Of a stretch of DNA of 64,000 nucleotides, positions 15,777 through 46,163 are shown piece by piece. Positions within the stretch are counted from its first letter, which is position 1, and every line of letters begins with the position of its first letter. The DNA is taken from contig JBBQFO010000001.1 of the NCBI GenBank assembly GCA_038322035.1, forward strand, positions 17,366-81,365. Direction: 5' to 3'. Position numbers and translations under genes: made by a program. Under the pieces are notes generated by a model, which was given only the letters and a program-made list of their open reading frames with translations, was not told the DNA's origin and did no database searches. Origin of the DNA: Candidatus Obscuribacterales bacterium (GTDB lineage Bacteria > Cyanobacteriota > Vampirovibrionia > Obscuribacterales > Obscuribacteraceae).

Positions 15777-15839
15777 GTTGCCCTCCATGCATAAACTTTG
15801 AGCCGAGCTTGAGAAATGACAAAAAAACGATGGAACGAG

Positions 15840-15874
15840 AAAAAAACTGGTATCACCCTTGGTGGTGATACCAG
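15840..15874 (-). terminator. Rho-independent terminator after the ABC transporter gene
   Basis: On the minus strand the stem CTGGTATCACC/GGTGATACCAG (11 bp, 6-nt loop) is followed directly by TTTTTTT. Confidence 0.75.
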
Positions 15875-15924
15875 TTATAGTGGCATCCGCTAATCTTGCG
15901 GAGCCTTGGCGGTCTGGCAGGAGG

Positions 15925-18051
15925 CTAGGCGATTTCTGGGTGCCGCGCCTTGTAGAACTCGGCTGGGTAAGTCTCCCAGCCACCGTTTCCGTTTAGCTGC
16001 AAAACCGTAGTGTGGAAAGGCACCAGCGTCGGTCGGTGACCGACACTAATGACTGTCGCGCCTGTGTTCTTGATGATTTCGTACATAGCGCGTTCGTTGG
16101 CAGTGTCCAGAGCAGAGGTCGCTTCATCGAGCATGATCAGCATCGGCTTGTTCGCCTTGCCGATTGCTAGCCAAGCACGCGCGAACGCCAGGCGTTGCTG
16201 CTCGCCCAAACTGAGAACCGTTGACCAGTTGGTAACAGCATCAAATCCACCTTCGAACCGATCGGGCAGATCAGCTAAGTTGAACTTGGCGAGCACGGCG
16301 CGGGCGGCACTATCAGTCAATTTGGTTGTGTGTCCGTACTCCAGTTGGTGACGCAGATTTCCCAGCGGCATGTATGGTTTCTGGGGCAACGTTAAGACGT
16401 TGTCGGCGTCTGGGGAAATGATTTTGCCGCTGCCACCTGTCCAAAGTTCAGCGATGGTGCGGATTAGTGAAGATTTGCCAACTCCGCTTGATCCGACTAC
16501 CAGTGTGCTCGACCCTTCCTGCGCTAAGAAATTGAGGTCTTTGACGAGCGTTTGTGCTCCGTCAGGCGTTGTTATCGTCCCTTTGGTAATCTCAACGGCA
16601 GCGTTGGTCACATGAGCAAATGAGATTTGCCCGACGGTGTAGGAGTCCGCATCCAACTTCTCGGTGAACGGATACAGACGATCGATGTTGGCTTTGAAGC
16701 TTGCCAATCCTTTGATGTTATCGACCACGATGGTCAGACTTCCCAGCACTGCAGAGAAAGCTGTGCTGGCCTGGATGAATTGCCCGAATTCGATCTTGCC
16801 GGCGAACCACAGGGTGGCTAGCACACCTGCAGGCACCAGGTTGATGAAGAAGCCGTAGGGTGTCGAGAAGAGTGAGAACAGGAAGTTAAGACCGATCACT
16901 CTTCGTATGTTTTGCCACGCTTCTTTGAAGGCGACGAGGACCTGGAATTTTTCTTGTTCCTCGCCGTGATAGAGCGCAATTTGCTCAGTGTTGTCACGCA
17001 CTCGCACGAGTGAGTAGCGGAAGTTCGCCTCCAATTTGGCTTGCAGGTAGTTGAGTATTGAGAACTGGCGTCCGAAGAGCAGCGAGATCGCTGTGCCTAT
17101 GCCGGCGTAGACGATCGCGGCTAGTACCAGTACTGGTGCGATCAAATAGAGAATGGCTGCGTAGGTGAACAGTGTCGCTGTCGCATCGATGACTGCCATG
17201 AATATACTTAAGGCTGCACTGGGGAAGGCATCGGCATCGTTGGTGAGTCGTTCATCAACGTTGTCGACTTGTTGTGCTTCGTTGACGAGCCGGTAGTAGT
17301 TGTGATTCGCCATGAACTTGCCAACCAGTGTGTTGGTTAGCCAAATTCGCCATGAGAGTGTCAGGCGTGATTTGATCCAGGCGTAGAATACGATTATCGG
17401 AGTGGCAACGAGCAGAACGGTTGCGTAGCGCGAGAAGTTTAGCCAGAATACTGGCTCATTTTTACTTTGCAGTGCTTCGTAGAAGTCCCTGCCCGTGAAT
17501 GAAATTACCACGTTCAGGTAGTTCACCGCGGCTAAGCCGATGAGCAAGAATGCGATGAAAGCTCCGGCTTTCCATCTTGTTTCCTTGGAAGTCCAATAAC
17601 CGGCACCGATTTTCCACACGGCAGTCTTTGACACCCGGCGAATTATGTAACGCCCGATTAGGAAGATCGGTATCCAGAGCAGAAATGGTGAGCCAAGCAT
17701 AACGAGGAGCCATGCCGGTTCCCCTAGCGCCGGGGAAACTTGATGGACCACGTAAGCGGCCACGTCGTTCAGCAACCCATGTTCGATGTTGGCCCAATTT
17801 CCCACAGCAAGAGTGGCGATAATCGAGATGCCGATGAAAATCCATTTGGCCCAACGCTCGACGAATGCTTGGAATTTAGCGAAGAGCCGTCGAGCCGGTT
17901 GCTCCGCCTTGCCAACAAACCAAGCTAGCGGTGATTTTGCTTTTGCTGCGATCCACAGTGCGATTGCTTTGGCGACCCTGAATGGGAACGTAATGACAGC
18001 GATGAGCGCGGTCAGTAACCACGTCAACGACGCCTTCAACAAGTGTTTCAT
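15925..18051 (-). CDS. ABC transporter, fused permease/ATPase of the ABCD (SbmA/BacA-like) type with extra N-terminal membrane region
   Basis: Walker A 'GSSGVGKSS', signature 'LSLGEQQR', Walker B 'LIMLDEATSALD'. The TMD-NBD linker 'EANFRYSLVRVRDNTEQIALYHGEEQE' matches the ABCD/BacA hallmark. About 150 additional N-terminal aa carry 3-4 hydrophobic helices. GGAGAG precedes the ATG. Confidence 0.85.
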   Translation of the reverse strand: MKHLLKASLTWLLTALIAVITFPFRVAKAIALWIAAKAKSPLAWFVGKAEQPARRLFAKFQAFVERWAKWIFIGISIIATLAVGNWANIEHGLLNDVAAYVVHQVSPALGEPAWLLVMLGSPFLLWIPIFLIGRYIIRRVSKTAVWKIGAGYWTSKETRWKAGAFIAFLLIGLAAVNYLNVVISFTGRDFYEALQSKNEPVFWLNFSRYATVLLVATPIIVFYAWIKSRLTLSWRIWLTNTLVGKFMANHNYYRLVNEAQQVDNVDERLTNDADAFPSAALSIFMAVIDATATLFTYAAILYLIAPVLVLAAIVYAGIGTAISLLFGRQFSILNYLQAKLEANFRYSLVRVRDNTEQIALYHGEEQEKFQVLVAFKEAWQNIRRVIGLNFLFSLFSTPYGFFINLVPAGVLATLWFAGKIEFGQFIQASTAFSAVLGSLTIVVDNIKGLASFKANIDRLYPFTEKLDADSYTVGQISFAHVTNAAVEITKGTITTPDGAQTLVKDLNFLAQEGSSTLVVGSSGVGKSSLIRTIAELWTGGSGKIISPDADNVLTLPQKPYMPLGNLRHQLEYGHTTKLTDSAARAVLAKFNLADLPDRFEGGFDAVTNWSTVLSLGEQQRLAFARAWLAIGKANKPMLIMLDEATSALDTANERAMYEIIKNTGATVISVGHRPTLVPFHTTVLQLNGNGGWETYPAEFYKARHPEIA

Positions 18052-33283: not shown

Positions 33284-33784
33284 GGTGGTGTGGAAACAAA
33301 ATTATCTATTGGCAGTGCTGGATAATTTTTTGACTTCCACACTCTTTGTGCATTAACTGTGCAGTGCCTCACTGCATACGGTGCGCACTTTTCGATCAAG
33401 CACCTTTGAGTCGGTCCTCTGACTGATCACCCGATGCTCCAGTACCCCGCTGAACTCCCTTGTTCACAAGCATTTGGTGCGACGTCTGTCGCTTTCGTTC
33501 CAAGCCACTACTATTGTTCATTGATGTGCGTGTTCGTTGCGTAGTCTTTTCTTGCGCGCTCGCGTCAAATTCCATCTGTGCTTTTCGTGGAAATTTTTTC
33601 AATGCGATGACACGAAAACGCGCATGCACGAAAACTTTTATGATGATCTTATCTTCCGCAAGCCGCGCTAACGTCGCAAGTGAGTCGGGCTGCGCACTTC
33701 ACCAGTGACTCAATGCACATTGCATGTTGCAATAAGGCATGTAAACAGAATTTGTGTTTTGCATTGTTGCAAAGGATATATTGT

Positions 33785-36700
33785 ATGTGCATTTGGCGAG
33801 AGAAATATTTCCATTCGTTGTGCGCTTGCTTAACGCTAACACTCTTGCTTAGTTCGTTCACTGCGGCCCTGGCTCAAACGGTACCCCCGCCACCAGGAGT
33901 TGGTACTGGTATTGATGGCGGTGCTGCCGCTCTCGCTCCCCCAGCACGTCGGACCCAATCGACCGTGCCCGCCGCTCCCTACGTCGATGCTATTGGTCAA
34001 ACCAGCCTGATCGTTCAAAGTGCTGAGCAAAATGAGCAGAGCGTGATTGCAAATGTCAACACTCAGCTGCTGCAAGGCAGTGAGCTGGGAGCGTACAACG
34101 AGACTTATATGGGATTGAAAAACTTTTGGAGCGATGACATCGTCAGTAATCTATTTCAAAACATCGGACAGCTTATTGGTCGCTGGGTAACTGAATTGAT
34201 TAACGGTTGGGTATCGGATACGGTGCAGTTCCTGACCGCATTTTTGAGAACGTTCGTGCTAAATCCGAATGTCGCCGTCAACGGTTTACGAGGGCTTCCC
34301 GGGGCGGGCACCGGCAGTGATGATATATCGCCTTACATTCGTCAGGCAGCCGATGTAATGTATTCGATTGCCGTCGATCTATTGTTGCTATTGTTCATTC
34401 TAAGTATATGGAAGTACTGGGTTGATGCCGCCTGGCGCGGTGGTGTCAACCTTATGGGTGCGGTTGGAAGATTGATCTTCACTTCCGGACTCTTGCTCGC
34501 CTGGCCTACGATTTATGCCTTTGAAATTCAAATCACAAATGAAATGATAAAAGCTATTTTTTTCAGCTCGGCTGATCAGGTGGCGATGCTTGATGGCGCC
34601 ATGGCGGCTGCAGTTAAAGGAGGGTTAGTTGCCGGAGCCGGTTTGCTTGCCAGTGCTTTCGCCCCAGTCGTCGGTGGTCTCGCCGGTGGTGCATTGGTAG
34701 GTGGCGGTGGTGGCTTGGTTCTGGGTACAGTGGGTGAAGTCGTCGCTTTTGCGGGACTGATCATTTATTTGTTTCTGGGAGTGGTGCTGATTACACAGCT
34801 TATTTACATTCTGGTTTTGAAGGCAATTCAAACGGCTCTTCTGACTGCTCAATATATGTTCGCTCCGTTTTTCCTTGTCTTCTTTGCCACACCAAGTACG
34901 GAAAGTATAACCTCAGGATTTATCAGATCTTTTGTTGAAGTGAGCTTATGGACATTTTGTTGGGTTGGCTTGCTGAAAATCATGGTGATTTTGCTGTTTT
35001 CCGATTTCAATCCCTGGGGCAAAATCATTATGTCCATAGGCGTTCTTCAGCTGATGATTTCGGTTCCTGATTTTCTGTCGCGGGCAAGAATCAGCCCGAT
35101 GTCTAGTTTTATCTCGGCGGGCATGATTTCAGGCGGACTGATGAGCGGAATGAAAGCTTTGGGTGGCGCTGCAAAATTTAGAACTGGTCAAGCAATTGAC
35201 TATCACACCAATCAAAAATATGCAGCGAGAGGATTAGAACAGTCAAACTCTGTCGGTCTTAATGGGGTAAATCCAAATGTCCAAGATCCGGCATTATTGA
35301 AATCATTGAAGGATGTTAAAAACCAGAGCGGCGCTACACCCCCTACAACACCGCCAAAAACATCTACACCACCGCTAGAGACTGATCCTAATGCGCCTAA
35401 ATCACCAGGCGATGGCGGCGTGCCTGGCGATAAGCCCTTAAAACCTACAGGCGATCAGCCTGCAGGAGCCGAAGCAGCCACGCCCCCGTTGAAAAAGGCT
35501 GATGGGCACGGAATTCAGAAGGACGTTCCTCCGAGCACCATCCACGGTGTTGCGGTAGATTCGAGCAAAGGAAATCCAGGTAGTTCTGACGCTGCTGACG
35601 CATTGAAGTCCGGGGCAGTTGCAGGCGATGAATCTGCCACGCTGAATACGGCGATAGTCCAGAAATCCAGCGGCGCCAACCATGGGCCAGAAGATATCAA
35701 TTTTGCACCGCCCGGCAAAGATGTAAATGCCGCAGGCGGCGTGCCCCCTGTTGGTGCGGGCGGGAAGTCGAAGCCCCTTACCCCGGCTCCAAACGCATAC
35801 ACTGCGCGACAAATAGCTGGCACTGTGCCAGTGGCAACGGATCTGGATAGAAAACAGGGTAACTACATCGACCCGAGCACCATGATTTTGCAGTCAGGCG
35901 ATGGTGATGATGGCGGTGTCGCTGTGCCCCCTCCACCTCAGTCGGCAACGCCACTAACGAATCCGCCTTCAGCGGCACCGGCGGTCACGGAGAGCCCCTA
36001 CGATAAATATGACAGAGCCAACTATAGAAACGTTCCAGTTCGAAATTTCCTTACTGATATTAGAACCGCAGTGAGAAGCATGGGCACACACAGTGGCACG
36101 AGCAGCATTATTGGTGACACCAAGGGTAATGTTCATCACGCCCGCTTCAACGAAGACGACACCCCTGAACAAAAAGCGCAGTTACTTGCAACAGGTGGCT
36201 TTGCTCAAAAATATTCAACCGACCCTGTCGGCTTCGATGCGGCAAGGCAATCAGCGATTGATGCAGGTGCCGACAGTCCACAAGGGTTCTTTGAAAATAT
36301 GTCTGCCGGTTTTCTAGCGCACAATGGGAAAAGTTTCAAGCAAACTGCACTGGCTAAACAAAGATTTCAAAAGGCGCTTCTTCAACAGGCGGTAGTTGGT
36401 TCGCAGGCGTACGTTGGCATGGACTCGGAAAATGCCAACGCTTACACTGGCTATCTAAATTCCACGTATGGGGAGATGACTTCGGATAGACAAGCTCAAA
36501 TGATCTATCTAATTGAAGACGAAGGAAATGCTGATTCAGGCTGGAATCCCAATCGACCTGCCGCGATCGACTTGCTCACCAGAACAGGTTTGGGAGTCAC
36601 GAACACGCGCATTGCGGCCGCATCAGTTGAAGGTGTTAAGGGTCTAGCACCATGGGCGAAGAACGCAGGCATTTTGAGTGTGTCTGCGCTGCTCGATCAA

Positions 36701-37855
36701 AAAGCAGACTCACATTTTGCTGGACAAAATGATGTTCACCCGATGGTACGAGATGCTTTTGTTGGTCAAATAGCAGACACAATTACACCGTCAGATGTTG
36801 CTAGTTGTTTAGCGATCATGATCGAGGCTCCCAATGCCCAGGCTGGCACAGAATTATGCCGCAATGAAGCATTAGTTCAATCGGTTTCCAGCTTGGTCTC
36901 AGGCGGCTATCAAAGAGATCATGCCACGGCAGTAAAGAGTTTGGGCGAAATTGCGAGACAATTGCAATCAGGCTCGGCACCGCCTCCTGGTGGAAGAATG
37001 GGCAACATTCCTCAGAACTCTTCGCCTCCTTACGTGCCACCATATGTGCCGCCTTACGCACCGTCGAATCCGCAATCTGCAAATACGTTCACTCCAGTTG
37101 AGATCATTGTGGATCAACAGGATGATTTTTATTCGGCTGCAAATGGAGGAGCCGATCTCTCGTTCGATACCGTGAATCCAGCCATGATCGATTATACGTC
37201 TCGCGACAGTTTTCAATCTGGCAGTGCTCAATCAGGACCTGCAGCCAATCGGCCGATAAGACAAACTATTGTATCGGGCGGTTCCAGTTCAAGTTTATCG
37301 ACATCGGCAGCACTCAGTGGTAGTTCGCAAGAACAGATTTTGCATGCCCATCAAATTATCATGCAAGCGCATGATGCAGGTTTTGATGATCGGCAGTTGC
37401 GCGTTCCAAACATCGCCAAGGCTGTAGTTTCAATTCACAATCAGCCACATCTGATGCGACCTGCCGCTATGGCTGCTGCAGTATTGTCTCCAGAAGAATT
37501 AACGGTTGATACCATCAAGGCAGCCGATCAAATGGTTGCAGCTAATTGGAACCAAATTGGTCGCGAAGATTTGATTGCTGGACAATCAATCGTGCAACAA
37601 AATGGTTATCCCGACAGACAAGCTGTGCAAATTGTTAGGCAGAATCCTGATTACACACCAACGCTTTCGCAATCTCCTGGTGGCGATTGGCAGGTTCCTG
37701 TCGTTCCTAACCAGGCCGTTCAAGACGTCAACAAGGTGCACCAAGGCCGGTATGGCTTCTCAAGTTTGCAACCTAGTAGTTCCGGTCTTGGCTCCGGTCC
37801 ATCAGCCACAAGTACACCGCCATCGACACCGCCTGTGCAGCTGAATCTTTTTTGA
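33785..37855 (+). CDS. Giant (1356 aa) polytopic membrane protein with long Pro-rich hydrophilic C-terminal region (VirB6/TrbL-like topology, tentative)
   Basis: ATG at 33785 is preceded by AAGGA. Signal-like 'CACLTLTLLLSSFTAALAQ'. About 8 hydrophobic helices, including the Gly-rich 'GGLVAGAGLLASAFAPVVGGLAGGALVGGGGGLVLG'. Then ~870 hydrophilic aa with linkers 'PPTTPPKTSTPP' and 'PPYVPPYVPPYAP'. The family call rests on topology only. Confidence 0.7.
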   Translation: MCIWREKYFHSLCACLTLTLLLSSFTAALAQTVPPPPGVGTGIDGGAAALAPPARRTQSTVPAAPYVDAIGQTSLIVQSAEQNEQSVIANVNTQLLQGSELGAYNETYMGLKNFWSDDIVSNLFQNIGQLIGRWVTELINGWVSDTVQFLTAFLRTFVLNPNVAVNGLRGLPGAGTGSDDISPYIRQAADVMYSIAVDLLLLLFILSIWKYWVDAAWRGGVNLMGAVGRLIFTSGLLLAWPTIYAFEIQITNEMIKAIFFSSADQVAMLDGAMAAAVKGGLVAGAGLLASAFAPVVGGLAGGALVGGGGGLVLGTVGEVVAFAGLIIYLFLGVVLITQLIYILVLKAIQTALLTAQYMFAPFFLVFFATPSTESITSGFIRSFVEVSLWTFCWVGLLKIMVILLFSDFNPWGKIIMSIGVLQLMISVPDFLSRARISPMSSFISAGMISGGLMSGMKALGGAAKFRTGQAIDYHTNQKYAARGLEQSNSVGLNGVNPNVQDPALLKSLKDVKNQSGATPPTTPPKTSTPPLETDPNAPKSPGDGGVPGDKPLKPTGDQPAGAEAATPPLKKADGHGIQKDVPPSTIHGVAVDSSKGNPGSSDAADALKSGAVAGDESATLNTAIVQKSSGANHGPEDINFAPPGKDVNAAGGVPPVGAGGKSKPLTPAPNAYTARQIAGTVPVATDLDRKQGNYIDPSTMILQSGDGDDGGVAVPPPPQSATPLTNPPSAAPAVTESPYDKYDRANYRNVPVRNFLTDIRTAVRSMGTHSGTSSIIGDTKGNVHHARFNEDDTPEQKAQLLATGGFAQKYSTDPVGFDAARQSAIDAGADSPQGFFENMSAGFLAHNGKSFKQTALAKQRFQKALLQQAVVGSQAYVGMDSENANAYTGYLNSTYGEMTSDRQAQMIYLIEDEGNADSGWNPNRPAAIDLLTRTGLGVTNTRIAAASVEGVKGLAPWAKNAGILSVSALLDQKADSHFAGQNDVHPMVRDAFVGQIADTITPSDVASCLAIMIEAPNAQAGTELCRNEALVQSVSSLVSGGYQRDHATAVKSLGEIARQLQSGSAPPPGGRMGNIPQNSSPPYVPPYVPPYAPSNPQSANTFTPVEIIVDQQDDFYSAANGGADLSFDTVNPAMIDYTSRDSFQSGSAQSGPAANRPIRQTIVSGGSSSSLSTSAALSGSSQEQILHAHQIIMQAHDAGFDDRQLRVPNIAKAVVSIHNQPHLMRPAAMAAAVLSPEELTVDTIKAADQMVAANWNQIGREDLIAGQSIVQQNGYPDRQAVQIVRQNPDYTPTLSQSPGGDWQVPVVPNQAVQDVNKVHQGRYGFSSLQPSSSGLGSGPSATSTPPSTPPVQLNLF

Positions 37856-38000
37856 TTGATAACCTGCACTAGCTCGCTGGGGTGCCTTGCAAAATCCAGG
37901 GATTTGTTCGCCTTGATTTTCTACGCTCAACTACTTACTACTATTCGACATCAGTCTCTGTCGACAATCGCTACCATTCGTATCCGGAGTTCTTACTGGT

Positions 38001-38210
38001 TCACCAATATTTGTAGGGAAGACGCACTCGATCAATGCCGCACCATGCTAATGTCGTTCCGCTTGCGAGCAAGCCGACTGCCACCAAAAGCAGTACCAAC
38101 CCAAGCGGTCTGCCCTCACCTGTTGCGCAGGCAAACAGAAATGGCAGCCCCCAGCATCCCAGTCCGAAGCCGGTGAGCACGGTTTTCTTGTTCTTCAGCT
38201 CACCGAGCAA
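38001..38210 (-). CDS. Possible small membrane protein or gene remnant (no ATG/GTG start)
   Basis: The frame is open for ~95 codons with three hydrophobic helices ('AVGLAYILVAILL','GFGLGCWGLPFLFACA','LGLVLLLVAVGLLASG'). Only TTG/CTG starts are available and there is no SD. Confidence 0.25.
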   Translation of the reverse strand: MLGELKNKKTVLTGFGLGCWGLPFLFACATGEGRPLGLVLLLVAVGLLASGTTLAWCGIDRVRLPYKYW

Positions 38211-38837
38211 AATAGCAACGAGGATGTAGGCGAGGCCGACGGCGAAAAAACGTTGCCCGTGAGGCAGTGCAAGCCGCGCGAGGTCCAGGTAATAGACAGA
38301 GATAATCGCTTAATCTAGCCGGTACTAGCGGCGCGAAGATCGAACATTAGCTTGCTGCCTCTGCCAAACAGCACTTTCCTCTGAACGCTGAGTTAGCGAC
38401 GTTAGTCGCGTTGACCGGCATCGCGAGAGATAGCGCACCACATCTGATTAGTTTGCTCTGGTTTTCATCCTGGAAAAGCCCAAATGCAGGAACATTCTAC
38501 CTGCTAAATTGGTTCACATTCGCAAACATTCGATGCAAAGAGTGGTCGAACATTCATAGGGTATGCGTATCTGCTTTTCCCACCCAATCAAACGCCAAAG
38601 GTTCTCAATCCACCCATTATGACGGTTCTTCTATCTTCACTTCTTCAATGCGCACCAGCGCAATGTAGGGAGGTGCGAGTGCAAGTGTTATAAGTTTCAT
38701 CGCTGGTTAAGCTGGCAGATGGGCAGGGATTAAGCAGATCGGACATGACTGGAGACAGATTGTGTTCGCCGTCAAATTTGAATCTTCATTTTCAGTCCTG
38801 GAGAAAGGCGGTTAGCTGAACCTTACGATCAGGTTTA

Positions 38838-38859
38838 CCCGACTGTTTCTGCAGTCGGG
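38838..38859 (+). promoter_or_regulatory. Hairpin immediately upstream of the nicotinamidase-like gene (terminator or leader structure)
   Basis: CCCGACTG-tttctg-CAGTCGGG. A U-tract (TTTTCGTT) begins 5 nt after the stem, 30 nt before the start codon. Confidence 0.4.
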
Positions 38860-38890
38860 CACAGTTTTCGTTCGTACCTATGAAAGGATA

Positions 38891-40009
38891 TTGAAGTTGG
38901 CTAATCAACAGAAGTATGAGACGCAATTGCCGGCATCTTTCGATCAGAATAACGTCGGGCTTTTCGACGAAATCGACTTCCGGGAAAACATTGACCAGGC
39001 GGAAGCGTACGAAATCGCTAACCACATCGAACAGCGTGAAAACGACGCTGCCGACGAAGTCGTCAAACTGGCGATCATCGACAATCAGGTCGACTTCGAT
39101 CTCAAAGAAGGGCGCTTGACCATATTCCCGGCAGCTGTGCGGGACCTGATCAACTTGCTGCTCTTCATCTTCCACAATCTGCGCATCATCTCTGACATCA
39201 TTGTCACCTTAGACAACCACCTTCTGGCCCACATCTTCTCGCCTATCTTCTGGGTGTCAGCCGCTGACGGCAAGACTCACCCATGGCCCGGTTCCAAAGG
39301 CGAGCTGACCGCTATCTTCCCCGACGACGTGGGAACCAAGTGGAATGTAAACCCGAAGATGGTGTGGATCTGCCTGGGCAAGAAGGCAACGCCGGAAAAT
39401 ATCGCCGAACTACAAAAGTATGCGAAGTGGTATTGCGCGGAGTTGCTCCGTCAGGGCAAGCCACCGCTGGTGGTGTGGCCCGTGCATTGCCGTCTGGGCA
39501 GCAAAGGCGCAGCACTTGTCCCGGCTCTGATGCGTGCCGTTGACTTCTTCGACGTCGTTCGCGGGAGCGTCAGCACTTGGCGCGTCAAAGGACTGAACAA
39601 GCTCACTGAAGGCTACAGCCCGTTTGGCGACGAAATCAAAATGTACGGCAAGACGAAGGTCGGCGAAGACTCGGTTGCCGTCATTCAGGATTTGCTAAAC
39701 TGCGCCATGCTGATCATCGCTGGTCAGGCCCTCAGCCACTGCGTGCGGGCGGCTATCTATGACATCATGCGCCAGATTTTGGAAATGGAGAAGGCTCAGG
39801 GCATTGATCCATCACAGTCTTTGACACGCAAAATCTACATTCTCGTCGACGCCTCCTCACCTGTGCCGACCTTCGAAAAGCAGGCTCAGGATGCACTCAT
39901 CGACTTCAAGAATGCGGGCATGAACGTGGTCCTGACCACAACTCCGATTCGCGACTGGCCCAATCTGCCAAAGGGCGTCGCCGCGAAGATTGATCGGTTA
40001 GCGGCCTAG
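38891..40009 (+). CDS. Expanded PncA-type nicotinamidase / isochorismatase-fold cysteine hydrolase
   Basis: Ordered motifs: 'AIIDNQVDF' (Asp), 'LDNHLLAH' (DxH..H metal-site-like), 'VVWPVHCRLGSKGAAL' (WPxHC), 'VKGLNKLTEGYSPF' (Lys, YSxF), 'IIAGQALSHCVRAAIYD' (nucleophile Cys). TTG start at 38891 or 38897 (AAGGA at 38884-38888). About 150 aa longer than canonical PncA, with an acidic N-terminal extension, an internal insertion and a C-terminal extension. Confidence 0.75.
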   Translation: MKLANQQKYETQLPASFDQNNVGLFDEIDFRENIDQAEAYEIANHIEQRENDAADEVVKLAIIDNQVDFDLKEGRLTIFPAAVRDLINLLLFIFHNLRIISDIIVTLDNHLLAHIFSPIFWVSAADGKTHPWPGSKGELTAIFPDDVGTKWNVNPKMVWICLGKKATPENIAELQKYAKWYCAELLRQGKPPLVVWPVHCRLGSKGAALVPALMRAVDFFDVVRGSVSTWRVKGLNKLTEGYSPFGDEIKMYGKTKVGEDSVAVIQDLLNCAMLIIAGQALSHCVRAAIYDIMRQILEMEKAQGIDPSQSLTRKIYILVDASSPVPTFEKQAQDALIDFKNAGMNVVLTTTPIRDWPNLPKGVAAKIDRLAA

Positions 40010-40034
40010 ACCGCACCATTGTCGGCTCACAACT

Positions 40035-40062
40035 GCACCGGGATTGGTATCACTCCCGGTGC
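40035..40062 (+). terminator. Hairpin between the nicotinamidase-like and vWA genes (weak terminator/attenuator)
   Basis: Perfect 9-bp stem GCACCGGGA/TCCCGGTGC with a 10-nt loop, followed by CTTATTCG. Confidence 0.45.
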
Positions 40063-40097
40063 CTTATTCGACTCTATTGATAAGGAAGGTGAATACC

Positions 40098-40958
40098 TTG
40101 AGCGATCTCAATCTGCAAGATATCGATTTGGACGCCTTGACTGCTGATAACGAAGGCACAGACGCACTTGGCTTCGAAGCATCGAACTTGATCAACACGC
40201 TGGGGGCACAAATCGCGGCCACCCAGTCTCCCATCGATCTGGGCGCCGACCCCGGAGAAGCTAAGCTGCTGATCGGTCTGGAATTGGACAACAGCCCTTC
40301 GATGGGATGGCACTATGCATGTGGTGATGCTAGCTGGATCACCACTCTGAAATACCATGGATTGGTGGCGAAAACCCTTCTCGAAAAGAAAGTCCCCGGC
40401 GACAGCGAAATGCTGACGTTCTTGCTCAACCAGTACCCTGGCTATGTTCAGCAGGTGCTGGGCTCAGGGCACGCTGAATTCACATGGGCGAACCTGAGCA
40501 AGGTACCGATCATGCTCATCCCCACCGAAGTATCACAGTATCTGACCGGCGGCACGCCTCTCTACGAACGCTCTCGCATTTTCCTCGCCAGCATCAAGAC
40601 GCGCGCGCTCTATTGGCAGCAGACTGAAAACATCCCGTGCCGGAGTGTGTCGGCGATCATCTCTGACGGTGGCAGCACTGATGACGTGCGGTACCGCGAT
40701 CAGTATGCCGATGAGTGCAAACTTCTGATCGCCGAACTTCGCAAGAATCGTATGCACCGTGTCCTGTTCGTCGGCATTGACGACGGCTCAACGGACTTCG
40801 TCGCGGTTGCCACACGCATGGGCATTCCGGCCCACGACATCCGCGTCATCAGTCAGAATACCGACGATCTGGGCGAGTTCTTCCTGCAATTCAGCCAGAT
40901 GTCAGTCACAGCCAGCCAGACTGCCGGCCCAATCGATCACATCAAACTCGGTAACTAG
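40098..40958 (+). CDS. TerY-like vWA domain protein (triad component 1)
   Basis: MIDAS 'LELDNSPSM' (DxSxS), 'TGGTPL', 'IISDGGSTDD'. TTG at 40098 is preceded by AAGGAAGGTG. The ORF-track start at 40044 lies inside the 40035-40062 hairpin. Confidence 0.75.
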   Translation: MSDLNLQDIDLDALTADNEGTDALGFEASNLINTLGAQIAATQSPIDLGADPGEAKLLIGLELDNSPSMGWHYACGDASWITTLKYHGLVAKTLLEKKVPGDSEMLTFLLNQYPGYVQQVLGSGHAEFTWANLSKVPIMLIPTEVSQYLTGGTPLYERSRIFLASIKTRALYWQQTENIPCRSVSAIISDGGSTDDVRYRDQYADECKLLIAELRKNRMHRVLFVGIDDGSTDFVAVATRMGIPAHDIRVISQNTDDLGEFFLQFSQMSVTASQTAGPIDHIKLGN

Positions 40959-40981
40959 ACCTGCGCTCCGTGTTCTTGGTT

Positions 40982-41014
40982 GTGGACCGGCGGATTTCCG
41001 CTGGTCCACTTTTT
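40982..41014 (+). terminator. Canonical Rho-independent terminator between the vWA and PP2C genes
   Basis: 12-bp stem GTGGACCGGCGG-attt-CCGCTGGTCCAC (one G-U pair) followed directly by TTTTT. Confidence 0.75.
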
Positions 41015-41055
41015 CACCTTTAAGAGCCGGATGCGCGATCGAACAGGAGGAACGC

Positions 41056-41922
41056 ATGGAATTACCTTTCAGTCTATCGGGTGGCACTTTTCCCGGTTAC
41101 AAATCGACGGGTACAGACATACCTAAAGGTGGGCGCAATCAAGACAGTCTGATGGGTGTTATCGGAGATGGCTACATTGTTATCGCCGTCAATGACGGTT
41201 GCAGTGGTAATCCCGAACAACACTTGCAGTCAGAACTCGGAGCGCTCGCCGGTAGTCAAATTGTTTGCAGTGTATTTGCAGACATCATCGAATCGGGACA
41301 GCCACTATGGGAAACTGTCACCGATGAAATTGTCGATCAACTCAGCCTTATCGCCGTTGCCTTAAGTCACGGGCGCAAAGAGCGCCTTGAACATGTGGTT
41401 CGCAAATACCTGATGTTCACCAGCGTCGTAGCTGTGATTGGACCTGAGGAAACAACGATCGCCACCGTCGGTGATGGCTACTATGCAATTAACGGTGGTG
41501 ATTTGAAACGTATTGGCCCTTACCCGGATAATCAGCCTCCCTATCTCGGATACTTGCTCTACCCCAACAACTATCCTCGGGAATTGCTGACGTTTCAAAA
41601 GCAAGTGCAGCTACCTACCGCAGACTTGCAATCGTTGATCATGGGCAGCGATGGGCTGGGTGAAGTGGCGGCTAGCGCTAATAAACGTTTGCCCGGCAAG
41701 TCTAGCCTTGTTGGCTCTCTCACTTCGCTTTTGGACAATCCGCGGTTTTTCAGAGGCGGTAAGAATCCTGAGAACGGAGCGCTTGTACCATGGTTGCGGG
41801 GGTTGAACAGTTCAGTTAGCAGAATTGTTTTCAATCCGGGGAACGGCAAGCCCGATATCGAGTACTCGGCTCCACTGATCGAAGACGACTACACCTGCGT
41901 ACTTGTAAAACGCACGCTCTAA
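41056..41922 (+). CDS. PP2C-family Ser/Thr phosphatase (triad component 2)
   Basis: ATG with AGGAGG 5 nt upstream. Blocks 'GGRNQDS','IAVNDGCSG','IMGSDGLGE','EDDYTCVLV'. The ORF-track 5' extension (40759-41055) overlaps the vWA gene and crosses the terminator. Confidence 0.8.
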   Translation: MELPFSLSGGTFPGYKSTGTDIPKGGRNQDSLMGVIGDGYIVIAVNDGCSGNPEQHLQSELGALAGSQIVCSVFADIIESGQPLWETVTDEIVDQLSLIAVALSHGRKERLEHVVRKYLMFTSVVAVIGPEETTIATVGDGYYAINGGDLKRIGPYPDNQPPYLGYLLYPNNYPRELLTFQKQVQLPTADLQSLIMGSDGLGEVAASANKRLPGKSSLVGSLTSLLDNPRFFRGGKNPENGALVPWLRGLNSSVSRIVFNPGNGKPDIEYSAPLIEDDYTCVLVKRTL

Positions 41923-41955
41923 GTATGAGGGGACCAAAGCTCGAAAGGAGTCTGC

Positions 41956-43947
41956 ATGTCTCAGCACATGACTGTCTATATCGCCGGAAAGCCATACACA
42001 TTTGACCCCGATGATGTGTGGAAAGAAGGCGGCGAAGCTTACATATACAAATATGGAAGCGACGCGCTTTTGCGATACTATCGTCGCCCTGACGATATTA
42101 GGTTTGCGGGTACAACACCGGAGGACAGGCAAAGACAACACTTTGTCGAGCTGAGGCTCGAAGAGTTACAGAGAAAGCTGCCTGTCTTTCCAAAAAATCT
42201 ACCGGAACGCGTCGTCACGGACAGGGAACTAGTTTGGAACTCGATCGACCAGCGCAGTAGACCCAGAATCGTGGGCAGCATTGTTCCGTTGATACCAGAT
42301 GCAGTGACTTTGCACGAGCTCGCCTCGGCCAAATTCCGGCGCGAAAACACGATTGGCGACGTAGCGGTGATCGACATCCTCAAGGACTTGTATGCCACCG
42401 TATGCGGCGTGCATAAAGCTGATGCTGTCATCGGAGACTTCAACACCGAGAACGTGCTCGTTCAGCCGTCATTGCTCCGTGCACCTTTGGTCGATGCTCA
42501 CGCTATGCAGTTTGGATCCTACCTGTGCGCTACCTATACGGCACGTTACGTCGATCCACTGGTGGCTCGGTGGGCAGCCAGCAAGGTCCCGGGCGAACCT
42601 GGTAGCGTCGAGATGATCGGCAGGCATTCACCGCTCACGGACTGGTATGCCTACCACTTGATGTTCTGGGAAATGTGGTATGCGCCGCTCTATGGAGGCG
42701 TCTATAGACCGAAGACAGGTGCCACCATGGTCGAGTTCGAGGAGCGTCCATTTCACAGCCCCAGGCTCTCCGTCTTGCATCCCGATGTTGCCTATCCAAA
42801 GCGTGGATTTCAAGATTACCACACGGCACCACCAGAGATACTGGAGCACTATCGTAATCTTGTCACAAAGGACCTTCGCGCCCCTTTTCCCGAGAAGTTT
42901 CTCGACAACCTCCGAGTCGCATACGGTGGCACATACTTGGCCACCCACACGCCCGTACCGGCTGTCCCAGTCGGCATCTCTATTATCAGGTCAGGGCCTG
43001 CATCATCGACGTTGATGTTTGAGACCACAGGCACCATCCTTGATGCTGCTTATCACGGTGGTAGACTGCGCTTTCTCTGCTCCAAAGATGGTCGATTCTA
43101 TCGTGAAGGGGCGAGAACCAAGGGCGACCTCGACATCGGAAAGGGATCATTCAACCCTAAGGTTGCCTACATCATCCAGGGCGATAGCACGATACTCGCC
43201 AAGGAAGGCGGTAAGGCCACACTAATTGCACCAGGGGCAGCGCCACTACAGCTTGATGCAGAGCGCTATCGTCAGGGCAAGCCGGTTGTGGCTACCAACG
43301 AAAACTTCTACTACTGGGCCGGACAGGGTAAAGTTCGGCGCAAGCCGAAGCCTGATCCTCAACTAGCCATGTTCGTCACGCCACAACCAGTCGAAATCTG
43401 CGAAGCGCTGCAGGAGCAAACCCGCATTTGGGTTGGTCCCAAGTTTGGTTTTGCCTTCAGTGCTACCGCCAATTTCGCCAAGGCGTTTGTTTTCGATGCC
43501 GAAAAAGCCGGAAATCTGCCTGTGGACTTGGAACCGCTGTCAGGCAATATTGTGGCTATCCGCTGTTACTTCAGTGACGATCGGCTCTGGCTGTTCACAA
43601 CTAAGAAAGTGAACGGCAGCAACGTCAACAAATGCACGTTGATCGATAGCAACGGTAAGCGGCTTGCTGCTTCGAAAACGGTGGCCGATGGAGACGATTC
43701 TTGGCTCGGCTCAATTGACGGCAAGTGCGCAGCTCTGTTGCCCGCGCCAGGCGGGAAGATCGAAGCGCTGCTTTCCGTTACCGCAGACGGTGTGGTTCTC
43801 GTGCAACAATCAGGCGTCAAGCTATCAGGAAGCTCGGCCTTCGAAGGAACCGCGACATTGGTGAATGCTGATGACAACCTGTTCTACAGCCCCGATGGTT
43901 TATATGCCTGGAACAGCAACAGCATCAGGTTGATCAAAACATCGTAG
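41956..43947 (+). CDS. Ser/Thr protein kinase-like protein with ~330-aa beta-rich C-terminal domain (triad component 3)
   Basis: Gly-rich loop 'KEGGEAYIYKYG', catalytic-loop-like 'VHKADAVIGDFNTENVLV', DFG-like 'LVDAHAMQFG'. AAGGAG RBS. The C-terminal half has no motif I recognise. Confidence 0.75.
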   Translation: MSQHMTVYIAGKPYTFDPDDVWKEGGEAYIYKYGSDALLRYYRRPDDIRFAGTTPEDRQRQHFVELRLEELQRKLPVFPKNLPERVVTDRELVWNSIDQRSRPRIVGSIVPLIPDAVTLHELASAKFRRENTIGDVAVIDILKDLYATVCGVHKADAVIGDFNTENVLVQPSLLRAPLVDAHAMQFGSYLCATYTARYVDPLVARWAASKVPGEPGSVEMIGRHSPLTDWYAYHLMFWEMWYAPLYGGVYRPKTGATMVEFEERPFHSPRLSVLHPDVAYPKRGFQDYHTAPPEILEHYRNLVTKDLRAPFPEKFLDNLRVAYGGTYLATHTPVPAVPVGISIIRSGPASSTLMFETTGTILDAAYHGGRLRFLCSKDGRFYREGARTKGDLDIGKGSFNPKVAYIIQGDSTILAKEGGKATLIAPGAAPLQLDAERYRQGKPVVATNENFYYWAGQGKVRRKPKPDPQLAMFVTPQPVEICEALQEQTRIWVGPKFGFAFSATANFAKAFVFDAEKAGNLPVDLEPLSGNIVAIRCYFSDDRLWLFTTKKVNGSNVNKCTLIDSNGKRLAASKTVADGDDSWLGSIDGKCAALLPAPGGKIEALLSVTADGVVLVQQSGVKLSGSSAFEGTATLVNADDNLFYSPDGLYAWNSNSIRLIKTS

Positions 43948-44082
43948 ATCATCGCTGCCCCGGGCTAGTACCAAATGTGGTGCAGGCGATAGCCCGCACC
44001 ACTGACTAACTTCAATCTGAATTCGTGACTGAGTAAGGAGTTTTCATGCGTCGTTTCCGCGTCGTCGCGACGAAAGTCTGCC

Positions 44083-44130
44083 GGAAGAAAGGCTTGGTGT
44101 ATCCAAGCCCTTTCTTTCTCTTTTCGTCAT
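44083..44130 (+). terminator. Strong Rho-independent terminator ending the PP2C-kinase transcription unit
   Basis: About 15-bp stem GGAAGAAAGGCTTGG-tgtat-CCAAGCC(C)TTTCTTTC followed by TCTTTTCGTCATTTC. Confidence 0.75.
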
Positions 44131-44231
44131 TTCATGCGCCTCTTTGTACTTTTTTGTACTTTTTCGACATTTGCTCACCTGTATTAACTCCTCTATATAG
44201 TATATTCTTTGGAAGAGTAACATTGGGGATC

Positions 44232-44269
44232 GAGGTAGAAACTGACGGCTTCTAAAATAAAGCCGTCAG
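44232..44269 (-). terminator. Terminator after the last gene of the NAD operon
   Basis: 10-bp stem CTGACGGCTT/AAGCCGTCAG with an 8-nt loop. On the minus strand it is followed by TTTCTACC. Confidence 0.55.
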
Positions 44270-45311: not shown

Positions 45312-46163
45312 CTAACAAGCATTCATCGCTCGAGCCCGATTGATGATCAATCTGTGATCGAAGGCGATGTCCTGGGTTAACAACCAGTCCGTTTCGACAA
45401 TCTCCAAACTCTCCGCATCGTCTGCAGCCAGCATGTTTGCGTAGATCTCGTGTTCCCGATGAGCCGGGACGAACCAAGCGTAACCATGGTCAACTACTTG
45501 CTGCCGGGAGTCACGACGTGGGCCTGAGCGCACGTCCACGAGAACGAGTTCATCAGGCGAGACGATTACGTGCGTTTCTTCTCCGGCTTCTCTCGCACCG
45601 CACTCATCAACCGTTTCCAACTGGCAGAGCAGGAAGCCTCCAGGCAAAGACCACTTTCCAGCATCCGGGTTGTGTTTGCGCTTGATCACGAGGATCTTTT
45701 TGCCACCTTCAAGAAAGATGGCTACAGATGAAGTAGTGTCGGCCTTGGCGAAGCGATACGTGTATAAGTCACTCCAGTTCTGCCCCAGAAGTGATGGCAC
45801 CTCGCCTGCATGGGCAAGCTGGAAAGATTTCTCATTGAGCAGCTTGAGAGCTGCCCAGAGACGGTCACTTTCCTCCTCGTCAGTGACCAATGCGTCGACG
45901 ACTACAATTGGCTTCATGCCTCGCTGATACACTTTCTCAACTGCATCAAGAAGCGTTTGGGCAGTAACAGCGCCGGCGATAAACACGATGCGCGGTCCAC
46001 CCCGACCCAGCGGAGGAAGGCGCTTGGTGTTTTTACCAACGGCGACGTGAACGCCTGATTTCTCACACAAAGCGGCAAGCTCTATGCCCGTGGCTGCATT
46101 TTGATTATCACCAGTAATGGAAGCAACTGTCGATACTAATAGCAGTGAGTATTTGAGTTTCAT
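45312..46163 (-). CDS. Fusion protein: degenerate (Cys-less) isochorismatase-like N-domain + Nudix hydrolase (ADPR-pyrophosphatase-like) C-domain
   Basis: Nudix box 'GGFLLCQLETVDECGAREAGEETHV' preceded by 'GKWSLPGGF'. The N-terminal 'IVFIAGAVTAQTLLDAVEKVYQRGMKPIVVVDAL' resembles the C-terminal half of the isochorismatase fold, with Gln where the nucleophile Cys sits. Confidence 0.7.
   Translation of the reverse strand: MKLKYSLLLVSTVASITGDNQNAATGIELAALCEKSGVHVAVGKNTKRLPPLGRGGPRIVFIAGAVTAQTLLDAVEKVYQRGMKPIVVVDALVTDEEESDRLWAALKLLNEKSFQLAHAGEVPSLLGQNWSDLYTYRFAKADTTSSVAIFLEGGKKILVIKRKHNPDAGKWSLPGGFLLCQLETVDECGAREAGEETHVIVSPDELVLVDVRSGPRRDSRQQVVDHGYAWFVPAHREHEIYANMLAADDAESLEIVETDWLLTQDIAFDHRLIINRARAMNAC

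Follow-up and report, generated by a model that had tools for sequence, protein, structure and literature searches.

A four-gene module joining a predicted long-form nicotinamidase gene to TerY-P-like vWA, phosphatase and kinase genes, with a terminator-like hairpin inside one permuted copy

The published ideas nearest to the locus described here are the TerY-P systems, the regulons of NrtR and the ARG-centred systems of PMC9503650. TerY-P systems consist of a TerY-like vWA protein, a PP2C phosphatase and a serine/threonine kinase fused to a Zn-ribbon (Anantharaman, Iyer and Aravind 2012, as summarised in the part of PMC11090510 that describes them). In the TerY-P-like versions with anti-phage activity, an OB fold replaces the Zn-ribbon (Gao et al. 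2020, as cited in the same part of that article). Published NrtR operators have a 21-bp symmetry with the core GT-N7-AC (PMC2330246). The locus in question lies in a 64,000-nucleotide stretch of the genome of a Candidatus Obscuribacterales bacterium (contig JBBQFO010000001.1), which is referred to here as the window. An earlier note on this DNA had described a TerY-P-type triad of vWA, PP2C and kinase genes. All three of these open reading frames (ORFs) were located, and they are called G1, G2 and G3. Together with a predicted nicotinamidase gene, G0, they form four co-directional ORFs on the plus strand, spanning 38891-43947 (Table 1). We consider it rather probable that G0-G3 are a four-gene module in which a TerY-P-like phospho-switch is coupled to nicotinamide salvage, with an internal hairpin attenuating the kinase/phosphatase pair.

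The nicotinamidase gene was found to adjoin the vWA/PP2C/kinase trio in every complete locus examined, mostly between the kinase and vWA genes. Genes of ~370 aa and ~270 aa were always present near homologues of the kinase, and BLAST identified them as orthologues of G0 and G1. Orthologues of G0-G3 occurred together in ~22 loci, which came from Cyanobacteriota, Patescibacteria, Myxococcota and ten huge IMG/VR viral contigs. Besides the window, the module was seen in eight other genomes of the window's phylum, in Haliangium and in two Patescibacteria, and all four proteins were orthologous across the window and the loci L001 and L002. The viral contigs were 42-545 kb long; nine carried all four genes and the tenth (L045) had no G2, at a contig end. 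A tblastn search of GenBank phages with G3 gave no match, unlike the search of IMG/VR. One further locus, L029, was incomplete and had no PP2C gene within it.

Co-occurrence was followed in a sample of 401 genomes of the window's phylum. Full-length copies of the vWA and of the kinase were found in exactly the same nine genomes, each from a different family, and neither was found in full length in any of 169 small genomes of the window's own class. G334 was the only sampled genome with the kinase, nicotinamidase and vWA genes on separate contigs (C45, C4 and C8), which could reflect either assembly fragmentation or real dispersal. The gene orders seen were all circular permutations of one cycle, with three break points. 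The commonest order was PP2C-kinase-PncA-vWA, while PncA-vWA-PP2C-kinase was shared by the window, L001 and the contig of P0004, and vWA-PP2C-kinase-PncA was found on two viral contigs. The most constant adjacencies were PP2C-kinase and PncA-vWA. The unit is a conserved set of four genes, not three, and the window holds one permuted copy of it.

Nicotinamidase is the first enzyme of nicotinamide salvage and converts nicotinamide to nicotinate, which feeds PncB, NadD and NadE. On its conserved residues, the G0 product is classed as a divergent long-form PncA with insertions. In a family alignment of nine orthologues, D64, K233 and C284 were invariant, as were D108-x-H110, H199 and the run S282-H283-C284, and these residues match the catalytic triad and metal ligands of PncA. 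The match to the NCBIfam PncA model was weak (E 1e-4, 22 bits against the PRK11609 cut-off of 174). The window protein had no Pfam match (PF00857) at E <= 0.01, although some relatives do carry PF00857, and the family profile found no match among PDB sequences. The family counts more than 440 proteins, which their sources call isochorismatase or nicotinamidase, and stand-alone members lie directly upstream of NAPRTase/pncB in Zixibacteria and Chloroflexi. The long-form PncA was found in 111 of the 401 sampled genomes; it is thus a widespread enzyme, to which the vWA/PP2C/kinase trio is an optional addition that was never seen far from it.

The metal-ion-dependent adhesion site (MIDAS) of the G1 product was complete (D64-x-S66-x-S68, T153 and D190), and its DxSxS...T...D pattern was invariant in a 42-sequence alignment. 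The vWA motifs pointed out previously, 'DNSPS', 'TGGTP' and 'SDGGSTDD', are all in the G1 translation and stand on invariant or near-invariant columns of the family. The AlphaFold 2 (AF2) model had a predicted local distance difference test score (pLDDT) of 90.5 and a predicted TM-score (pTM) of 0.91, and Foldseek matched it to the vWA domains of TFIIH p44/Ssl1, CMG2/ANTXR, factor B and Ku80 at probability 1.0. The family profile also matched the integrin alpha1 I-domain (E 0.009). By itself, the G1 protein matched no PADLOC, NCBIfam or PHROG family, and it was too divergent to reach Pfam VWA. A Pfam Pribosyltran match (E 0.0098, below the cut-off) was rejected as chance because structure and profile both give vWA. 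There were 45 homologues besides G1 itself, mainly from Patescibacteria. Ahead of the first vWA beta-strand are ~55 residues with 11 Asp/Glu and no basic residue before K56, and this stretch is helical, confidently modelled by AF2 and conserved family-wide. The acidic N-terminal extension of ~70 aa noticed before is thus present, but it is shorter, at ~55 aa, and is shared by the whole family. Given its modelled helices and its family-wide conservation, we regard it as a family subdomain, not a private extension.

G2 belongs to PP2C_2 (Pfam PF13672, E 1e-8). Its metal-binding Asp residues, D30, D47, D140, D199 and D277/D278, were invariant in the family alignment. The four PP2C motifs picked out beforehand, 'RNQDS', 'NDGCSG', 'GSDGLG' and 'DDYTCVLV', were found again as the invariant or near-invariant columns Q29/D30, D47-G48, D199-G200 and D277-D278.

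The kinase motif residues of the G3 product were kept (G25-G26-E27, D161, N166 and D180), and 'GGEAYIY', 'IGDFNTENVLV' and 'LVDAH', by which it had been recognised as a kinase, lie on invariant or near-invariant columns of the family. The window protein had no Pfam match, scans of PADLOC, PHROGs and NCBIfam gave nothing useful, and phmmer against PDB sequences returned only noise. Ordinary Ser/Thr kinases across the phylum matched the G3 profile at positions 6-244 (E 1e-15 to 1e-23), and the family comprised 836 representatives at E < 1e-30. In the AF2 model (pLDDT 81.9), a kinase domain at residues 1-320 and a disordered linker at 320-346 are followed by an all-beta region of 28 strands at 349-663. 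This region is predicted to form seven four-stranded blades, i.e., a 7-bladed beta-propeller, which gives a fold to the beta-rich C-terminal domain of ~330 aa that had already been noted. The top Foldseek match was LRRK2 (kinase and WD40), with DDB1 and many WD40 propellers also matched.

The families of G1, G2 and G3 were all found by hhalign to be remotely homologous to the products of E. coli yegL-pphC-yegI, a triad that we take to be a TerY-P example and used as a comparator. The kinase family matched YegI best (98.6%, E 4.8e-16) over 284 columns that cover the kinase domain and the post-kinase helices and run into the Zn-ribbon region. The phosphatase family matched PphC, which is of the same PP2C_2 type (94.7%, E 6.2e-8, 178 columns), and the vWA family showed a marginal similarity to YegL in the C-terminal half only (84.8%, E 6.6e-6). 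E. coli YegI (L039 4040-5986) has no Pfam Pkinase match, like G3. On these alignments, the trio is distantly related to TerY-P-type triads and the term 'TerY-P-like' is fair. At E <= 0.01, the window proteins were unmatched by the PADLOC TerY-P models; this is a weak test, excluding Gao-type systems only, because the models miss E. coli YegL and PphC too. Only one of the 42 members of the G1 family was matched by the PADLOC TerY model (E 0.005), and this model likewise misses YegL. Taken as families, the module proteins matched almost only generic kinase models of PADLOC (such as MkoA, PD-T4-6 and PglW).

The window kinase differs from its relatives at several positions. The beta3 position is Lys in 153 of 155 relatives, and Arg (R40) was found only in the window G3 and its closest relative, P0002. 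In the IDADS motif of the same 155-sequence alignment, the near-invariant D182 is replaced by His only in the window G3, and the near-invariant S183 is replaced by Ala. In YegI, K39, which aligns with the beta3 position of G3, is needed for autophosphorylation (bioRxiv 10.1101/819920). Also, 115 of the 155 relatives have a Zn-ribbon-like linker behind the kinase domain, and the window G3 has no CxxC...CxxC linker; therefore, its absence there would be a loss in the lineage. Because of R40 at the beta3 Lys and the lost Zn-ribbon, the window kinase may be weakened, or it may be mainly a scaffold or pseudokinase. L001 encodes a second kinase paralogue of 759 aa (177-2456) with the Lys kept, just upstream of its nicotinamidase gene. 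This paralogue has a ~100-aa Pro/Gln/Ser-rich insert between kinase and propeller, and the layout resembles a partial tandem module duplication. A profile search of the phylum's genomes found no second, Lys-bearing kinase paralogue in the window genome.

The genes that flank the module in its relatives point to NAD metabolism. NadE, NadD-like, NAPRTase, Prs, Nudix/NrtR, ADP-ribosylglycohydrolase or Macro genes were found beside the module loci, and in Patescibacteria the module is flanked by NAPRTase and NadE. In the cyanobacterial loci, a gene for a Nudix and winged-helix NrtR protein is divergently adjacent to the module. Of the five intergenic regions between nrtR and module that were examined in cyanobacteria, four contained the 21-bp palindrome TAGTGT-N7-ACACTA, and L027 had it twice (Table 1). 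In symmetry and core it agrees with the published NrtR operators (GT-N7-AC, PMC2330246). The palindrome is a candidate NrtR operator and would put the module in an ADP-ribose-responsive regulon. In the window, a search for the NrtR-type palindrome gave 0 matches at <= 2 mismatches, compared to 1.0 expected by chance. In the cyanobacterial copies, the PP2C and kinase genes are often separated by an inserted ADP-ribosylglycohydrolase gene (PF03747, E 1e-37 to 1e-39), and a Macro gene lies near the module in a phage-like contig. The window module contains no ADP-ribosylglycohydrolase gene, and the only one in the assembly is on contig C85. The cyanobacterial locus L024 has two extra genes: one for a Bac_transf sugar transferase separates the kinase gene from that of the nicotinamidase, and one for a Cache-PAS histidine kinase separates nrtR from the PP2C gene.

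The window is set apart from its relatives by the hairpin between the vWA and PP2C genes. The earlier note had placed a 12-bp stem followed by TTTTT here and a second terminator at the end of the unit, and both were reproduced by RNA folding. The internal stem has nine G-C pairs and one G-U pair, with a folding free energy (dG) of -25.2 kcal/mol (z = -7.8), and none of 200 shuffles was as stable. It has the form of an intrinsic terminator, a GC-rich stem-loop followed by a U-tract on the transcribed strand, and it is read as a plus-strand element because no T-run follows the stem on the minus strand. With a strict filter (>= 8 bp, >= 5 GC pairs and a T4 run), it was one of three sites that passed in 64 kb. 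The possibility that it is a dispersed repeat was rejected, as it is a single copy in the 4.6-Mb assembly. By the same filter, the only other very strong hairpin with T5 in the window is at 15845-15876 on the minus strand, at the overlap of ORFs 13110-15983 and 15925-18051. G2|G3 is the only gene boundary in the cluster that has no stem-loop, and the stem-loop upstream of G0 probably ends the preceding unit.

The internal hairpin is exactly at the vWA|PP2C junction that the circular permutation created, between the PncA and vWA pair and the PP2C and kinase pair. Because of this position, it splits an enzyme-plus-adaptor pair from a kinase-phosphatase pair. The spacer between G1 and G2 is 97 nt, compared to 33 nt between G2 and G3, and the U-tract lies just 42 nt ahead of the G2 start codon. 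From 40098 to 41056, a stretch that covers G1 and the G1-G2 spacer, nothing promoter-like was found. The two gene groups had been proposed to be either uncoupled or attenuated at the hairpin. Attenuation is the likelier part of that proposal and full uncoupling the less likely one because there is no promoter-like site between the hairpin and G2. Most probably, the hairpin would cause partial termination.

Table 1. Positions of the module genes, hairpins and related features. Coordinates are those of the window unless a locus is named.
Feature	Position	Strand	Description
G0	38891..40009	+	372 aa; putative long-form PncA-type nicotinamidase, isochorismatase fold; fourth module member, overlooked earlier
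G1	40098..40958	+	286 aa; TTG start, Shine-Dalgarno sequence AAGGAAGG; divergent vWA with complete MIDAS
G2	41056..41922	+	288 aa; ATG start, Shine-Dalgarno sequence AGGAGG; PP2C_2 Ser/Thr phosphatase
G3	41956..43947	+	663 aa; YegI-like kinase and predicted beta-propeller
G3, N-terminal half (aa 1-320)	41956..42915	+	YegI-like Hanks-type kinase domain with helical extension
G3, C-terminal half (aa 349-663)	43000..43947	+	predicted seven-bladed beta-propeller behind disordered linker
Hairpin upstream of G0	38838..38872	+	9-bp stem CCCGACUGU/ACAGUCGGG, U-rich stretch after (RNA fold of 38800-38895)
Hairpin between G0 and G1	40035..40063	+	9-bp stem, no clear U-tract; z = -3.0 (RNA fold of 40008-40100)
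Internal terminator-like hairpin	40982..41014	+	stem-loop 40982-41009 with 12-bp stem and 4-nt loop, then TTTTT
Closing terminator-like hairpin and U-rich tail	~44083..44130	+	dG -20.7 kcal/mol, z = -4.2; faces convergent NAD-salvage operon
Neighbouring Nudix protein	45312..46163	-	homologous to NrtR regulators flanking cyanobacterial modules; without winged-helix DNA-binding domain
Palindrome-bearing regions	L025 5390-5645; L027 10023-10150; L028 11665-11757; L029 8993-9090		between divergent nrtR and module
Inserted ADP-ribosylglycohydrolase genes	L024 8193-9005; L026 10651-11430; L027 8405-9172

Taken together, we infer that the vWA/PP2C/kinase trio would be a TerY-P-like phospho-switch recruited to a nicotinamidase. 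The propeller may dock a partner or ligand, and the kinase and PP2C phosphatase may control whether the vWA protein or PncA is phosphorylated. Depending on that state, the vWA MIDAS would bind or release PncA or another client, so that nicotinamide recycling could be gated while NAD is consumed. As a partial terminator, the hairpin would hold the kinase and phosphatase below the levels of the enzyme and the vWA protein. Nicotinamide salvage is usually seen as transcriptionally controlled, by NrtR, NiaR and NadR. If the proposal is true, a kinase/phosphatase/vWA trio tied to nicotinamidase adds a signalling layer to NAD homeostasis, and the poorly understood TerY-P-type switch gains a concrete, assayable enzyme output with a simple activity test.

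A broader reading, which we offer tentatively as plausible but somewhat doubtful, is that the unit is an undescribed post-translational switch of NAD recycling. The propeller-kinase and PP2C, acting through the MIDAS-vWA adaptor, would toggle the nicotinamidase upon NAD breakdown. In bacteria of several phyla this would happen under NrtR/ADP-ribose control, and in huge phages it would serve to restore NAD while they infect. The window copy would then combine a pseudokinase scaffold with a permutation and an internal attenuator. In full-text literature searches (vWA with nicotinamidase; nicotinamidase/PP2C/kinase; TerY/NAD), no paper was found that links nicotinamidase with the vWA/PP2C/kinase set.

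Several findings speak against the switch as proposed. Of the 111 sampled genomes with the long-form PncA, 102 have no trio beside it; therefore, the enzyme does not need the switch. With Arg in place of Lys at residue 40, the window kinase could be inactive. The kinase substrate, the contact between the vWA protein and PncA and the direction of regulation are all inferred by us. As for the attenuator, relatives do not share the internal hairpin. In L001, which is the nearest of those with the window's gene order, the spacer of 217 nt offers no more than a weak 6-bp candidate, and no relative examined has a canonical terminator after the vWA gene. Finally, the patchy spread, the carriage by huge phages and the ADP-ribosylglycohydrolase and Macro links fit a role in conflict or defence equally well.

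NAD homeostasis is central to the conflict between phages and bacteria, in which NAD-depleting defences are met by NAD reconstitution on the phage side. The module could itself be a conflict system, serving as an anti-phage or stress module in cells and as a counter-defence in huge phages. Its switch would sense infection-linked NAD cleavage or ADP-ribosylation, and the nicotinamidase output would remove nicotinamide and drive NAD resynthesis. We judge this explanation possible, if on the unlikely side. The module is sporadic, with each of the nine genomes out of 401 belonging to a different family, and ten large IMG/VR viral contigs carry it. Several cyanobacterial copies have the ADP-ribosylglycohydrolase inserted, and the phage-like contig has its Macro gene nearby. 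The whole resembles the predicted ARG-centred systems, which section 3.8 of PMC9503650 describes with a Nudix-HTH regulator, a phosphatase and a vWA chaperone. Moreover, a defence role has been validated for TerY-P-like modules (Gao et al. 2020, as cited in the relevant part of PMC11090510). However, the window proteins match no PADLOC model, the module contains no nuclease or other toxic effector, and the genes beside it, in the window as in Patescibacteria, encode plain salvage enzymes. The window is also without the ADP-ribosylglycohydrolase gene, which is on another contig, and without an NrtR operator.

A separate question is whether the internal hairpin is a terminator at all. It could instead be an element that stabilises or processes the mRNA, or a neutral inverted repeat specific to the lineage. 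G0 is itself flanked by a stem-loop on each side, and the one before G1 has no U-tract; therefore, stem-loops at boundaries may be a local habit. The hairpin is also missing from all relatives. The idea that it is the operon-end terminator of the ancestral order, kept in place after permutation, was unsupported, as the relatives have no canonical terminator after the vWA gene. Against a non-terminator role, a perfect 12-bp GC-rich stem with five U directly behind it is the canonical form of a terminator, this form is rare, as the three strict-criteria sites in the window indicate, and the T-run is on the coding strand only. These features suggest that a non-terminator function is unlikely, and attenuation by partial termination is preferred here. 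The simplest alternative, a canonical three-gene TerY-P triad in which a full terminator uncouples the gene of the vWA substrate and the nicotinamidase is a mere neighbour, can draw on the vWA-PP2C-kinase order as in TerY-P, the remote homology to YegL, PphC and YegI, the strong-terminator look of the hairpin and the post-kinase Zn-ribbon that most kinase relatives keep, as TerY-P kinases do in the summary given by PMC11090510, but it is very improbable, since it is already contradicted by the nicotinamidase gene found in every complete locus, mostly between kinase and vWA, and there are no Ter, restriction or DNA-processing genes nearby, a propeller stands in place of the OB fold, the window copy has no Zn-ribbon, and no promoter-like element for G2 follows the hairpin.

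Around the module in the window, the genes again belong to NAD salvage. Converging on G0-G3 is an operon with isochorismatase-like, Nudix, NadE, Prs-like and NAPRT/NAMPT-like genes. By Pfam, its Nudix protein is NUDIX only; it had an NCBIfam NtrR-type match (E 1.5e-6), and tblastn matched it to the NrtR genes of the loci L024-L031. No Ter, restriction or DNA-processing genes were found around the module, and the locus had no blastn match in the phage and plasmid collections. The assembly itself is 4.6 Mb in 291 contigs and 70.6% complete. Just upstream of the module is a 1391-aa ORF (33680-37855), of which the N-terminal third is hydrophobic and another long region is rich in Pro, Ser and Gly. 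It had no Pfam, PADLOC or NCBIfam family and only a marginal PHROG match. The 1-kb gap that follows (37856-38890) might have been the relic of a second kinase gene like the one in L001, but this was rejected because no similarity was detected. A 69-aa ORF (44046-44255) that overlaps the closing terminator is probably no gene.

The unit spans three bacterial phyla and huge phages, and several protein families gain an annotation from it. The 'hypothetical' 286-aa family becomes a vWA protein with a MIDAS, the 663-aa family a YegI-like kinase with a predicted 7-bladed propeller, and the 372-aa protein a putative long-form nicotinamidase. The window copy shows that the unit tolerates circular permutation, and it provides a natural Lys-to-Arg kinase variant for comparison.

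Compared to TerY-P, the module has the same three domain types, including a vWA protein with a MIDAS and adjacent kinase and phosphatase genes, and the PP2C gene is encoded right beside that of the kinase (PF13672, 33-nt gap). However, a fourth gene, for nicotinamidase, is present in every complete locus examined. The window kinase has a 7-bladed propeller and neither a Zn-ribbon nor an OB fold, and the module vWA is divergent, only marginally YegL-like and has an acidic N-terminal subdomain. The triad is also not self-contained, as its context is NAD salvage and NrtR and not Ter, restriction or DNA-processing genes. The 'TerY-P-type' label of the earlier note, therefore, stands for the domain types and the remote homology to YegL, PphC and YegI, but it does not cover the fourth conserved gene or the NAD-salvage context. 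With the TerY-P-like systems of PADLOC and Gao et al. (2020), the module shares the set of vWA, PP2C and kinase and a patchy, mobile-looking distribution, but it has no OB fold and has a metabolic enzyme attached.

LRRK2 and other ROCO proteins likewise have a kinase domain followed by a C-terminal beta-propeller, and LRRK2 was the top Foldseek match to G3. This likeness is one of fold and architecture only (11-14% identity); G3 has no Roc-COR, LRR or other ROCO domains, and whole-protein homology is not implied. The ARG-centred anti-ADP-ribosylation systems (Iyer, Burroughs, Anantharaman and Aravind 2022, PMC9503650) differ from the module in that section 3.8 of that article lists rhodanese-type, calcineurin-like, HD and HAD phosphatases for them and no PP2C, kinase or nicotinamidase. 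Such systems have an ADP-ribosylglycohydrolase as their core gene, with a Nudix-HTH or WYL regulator, whereas the window copy has no ARG gene and its Nudix protein has no HTH. The cyanobacterial copies, in contrast, share with these systems, as that section presents them, a neighbourhood of Nudix-HTH, ADP-ribosylglycohydrolase, phosphatase and vWA genes. The last comparison is with the NrtR-controlled pncA-pncB (Preiss-Handler) operons. The described regulons have no kinase, phosphatase or vWA genes (PMC2330246), the window Nudix protein has no DNA-binding domain, and the window has no operator. Nevertheless, the nicotinamidase gene of the module is linked, as in those operons (Rodionov et al. 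2008, PMC2330246), to pncB, nadD, nadE, prs and Nudix/NrtR genes, and relatives of the module have NrtR-type 21-bp palindromes upstream.

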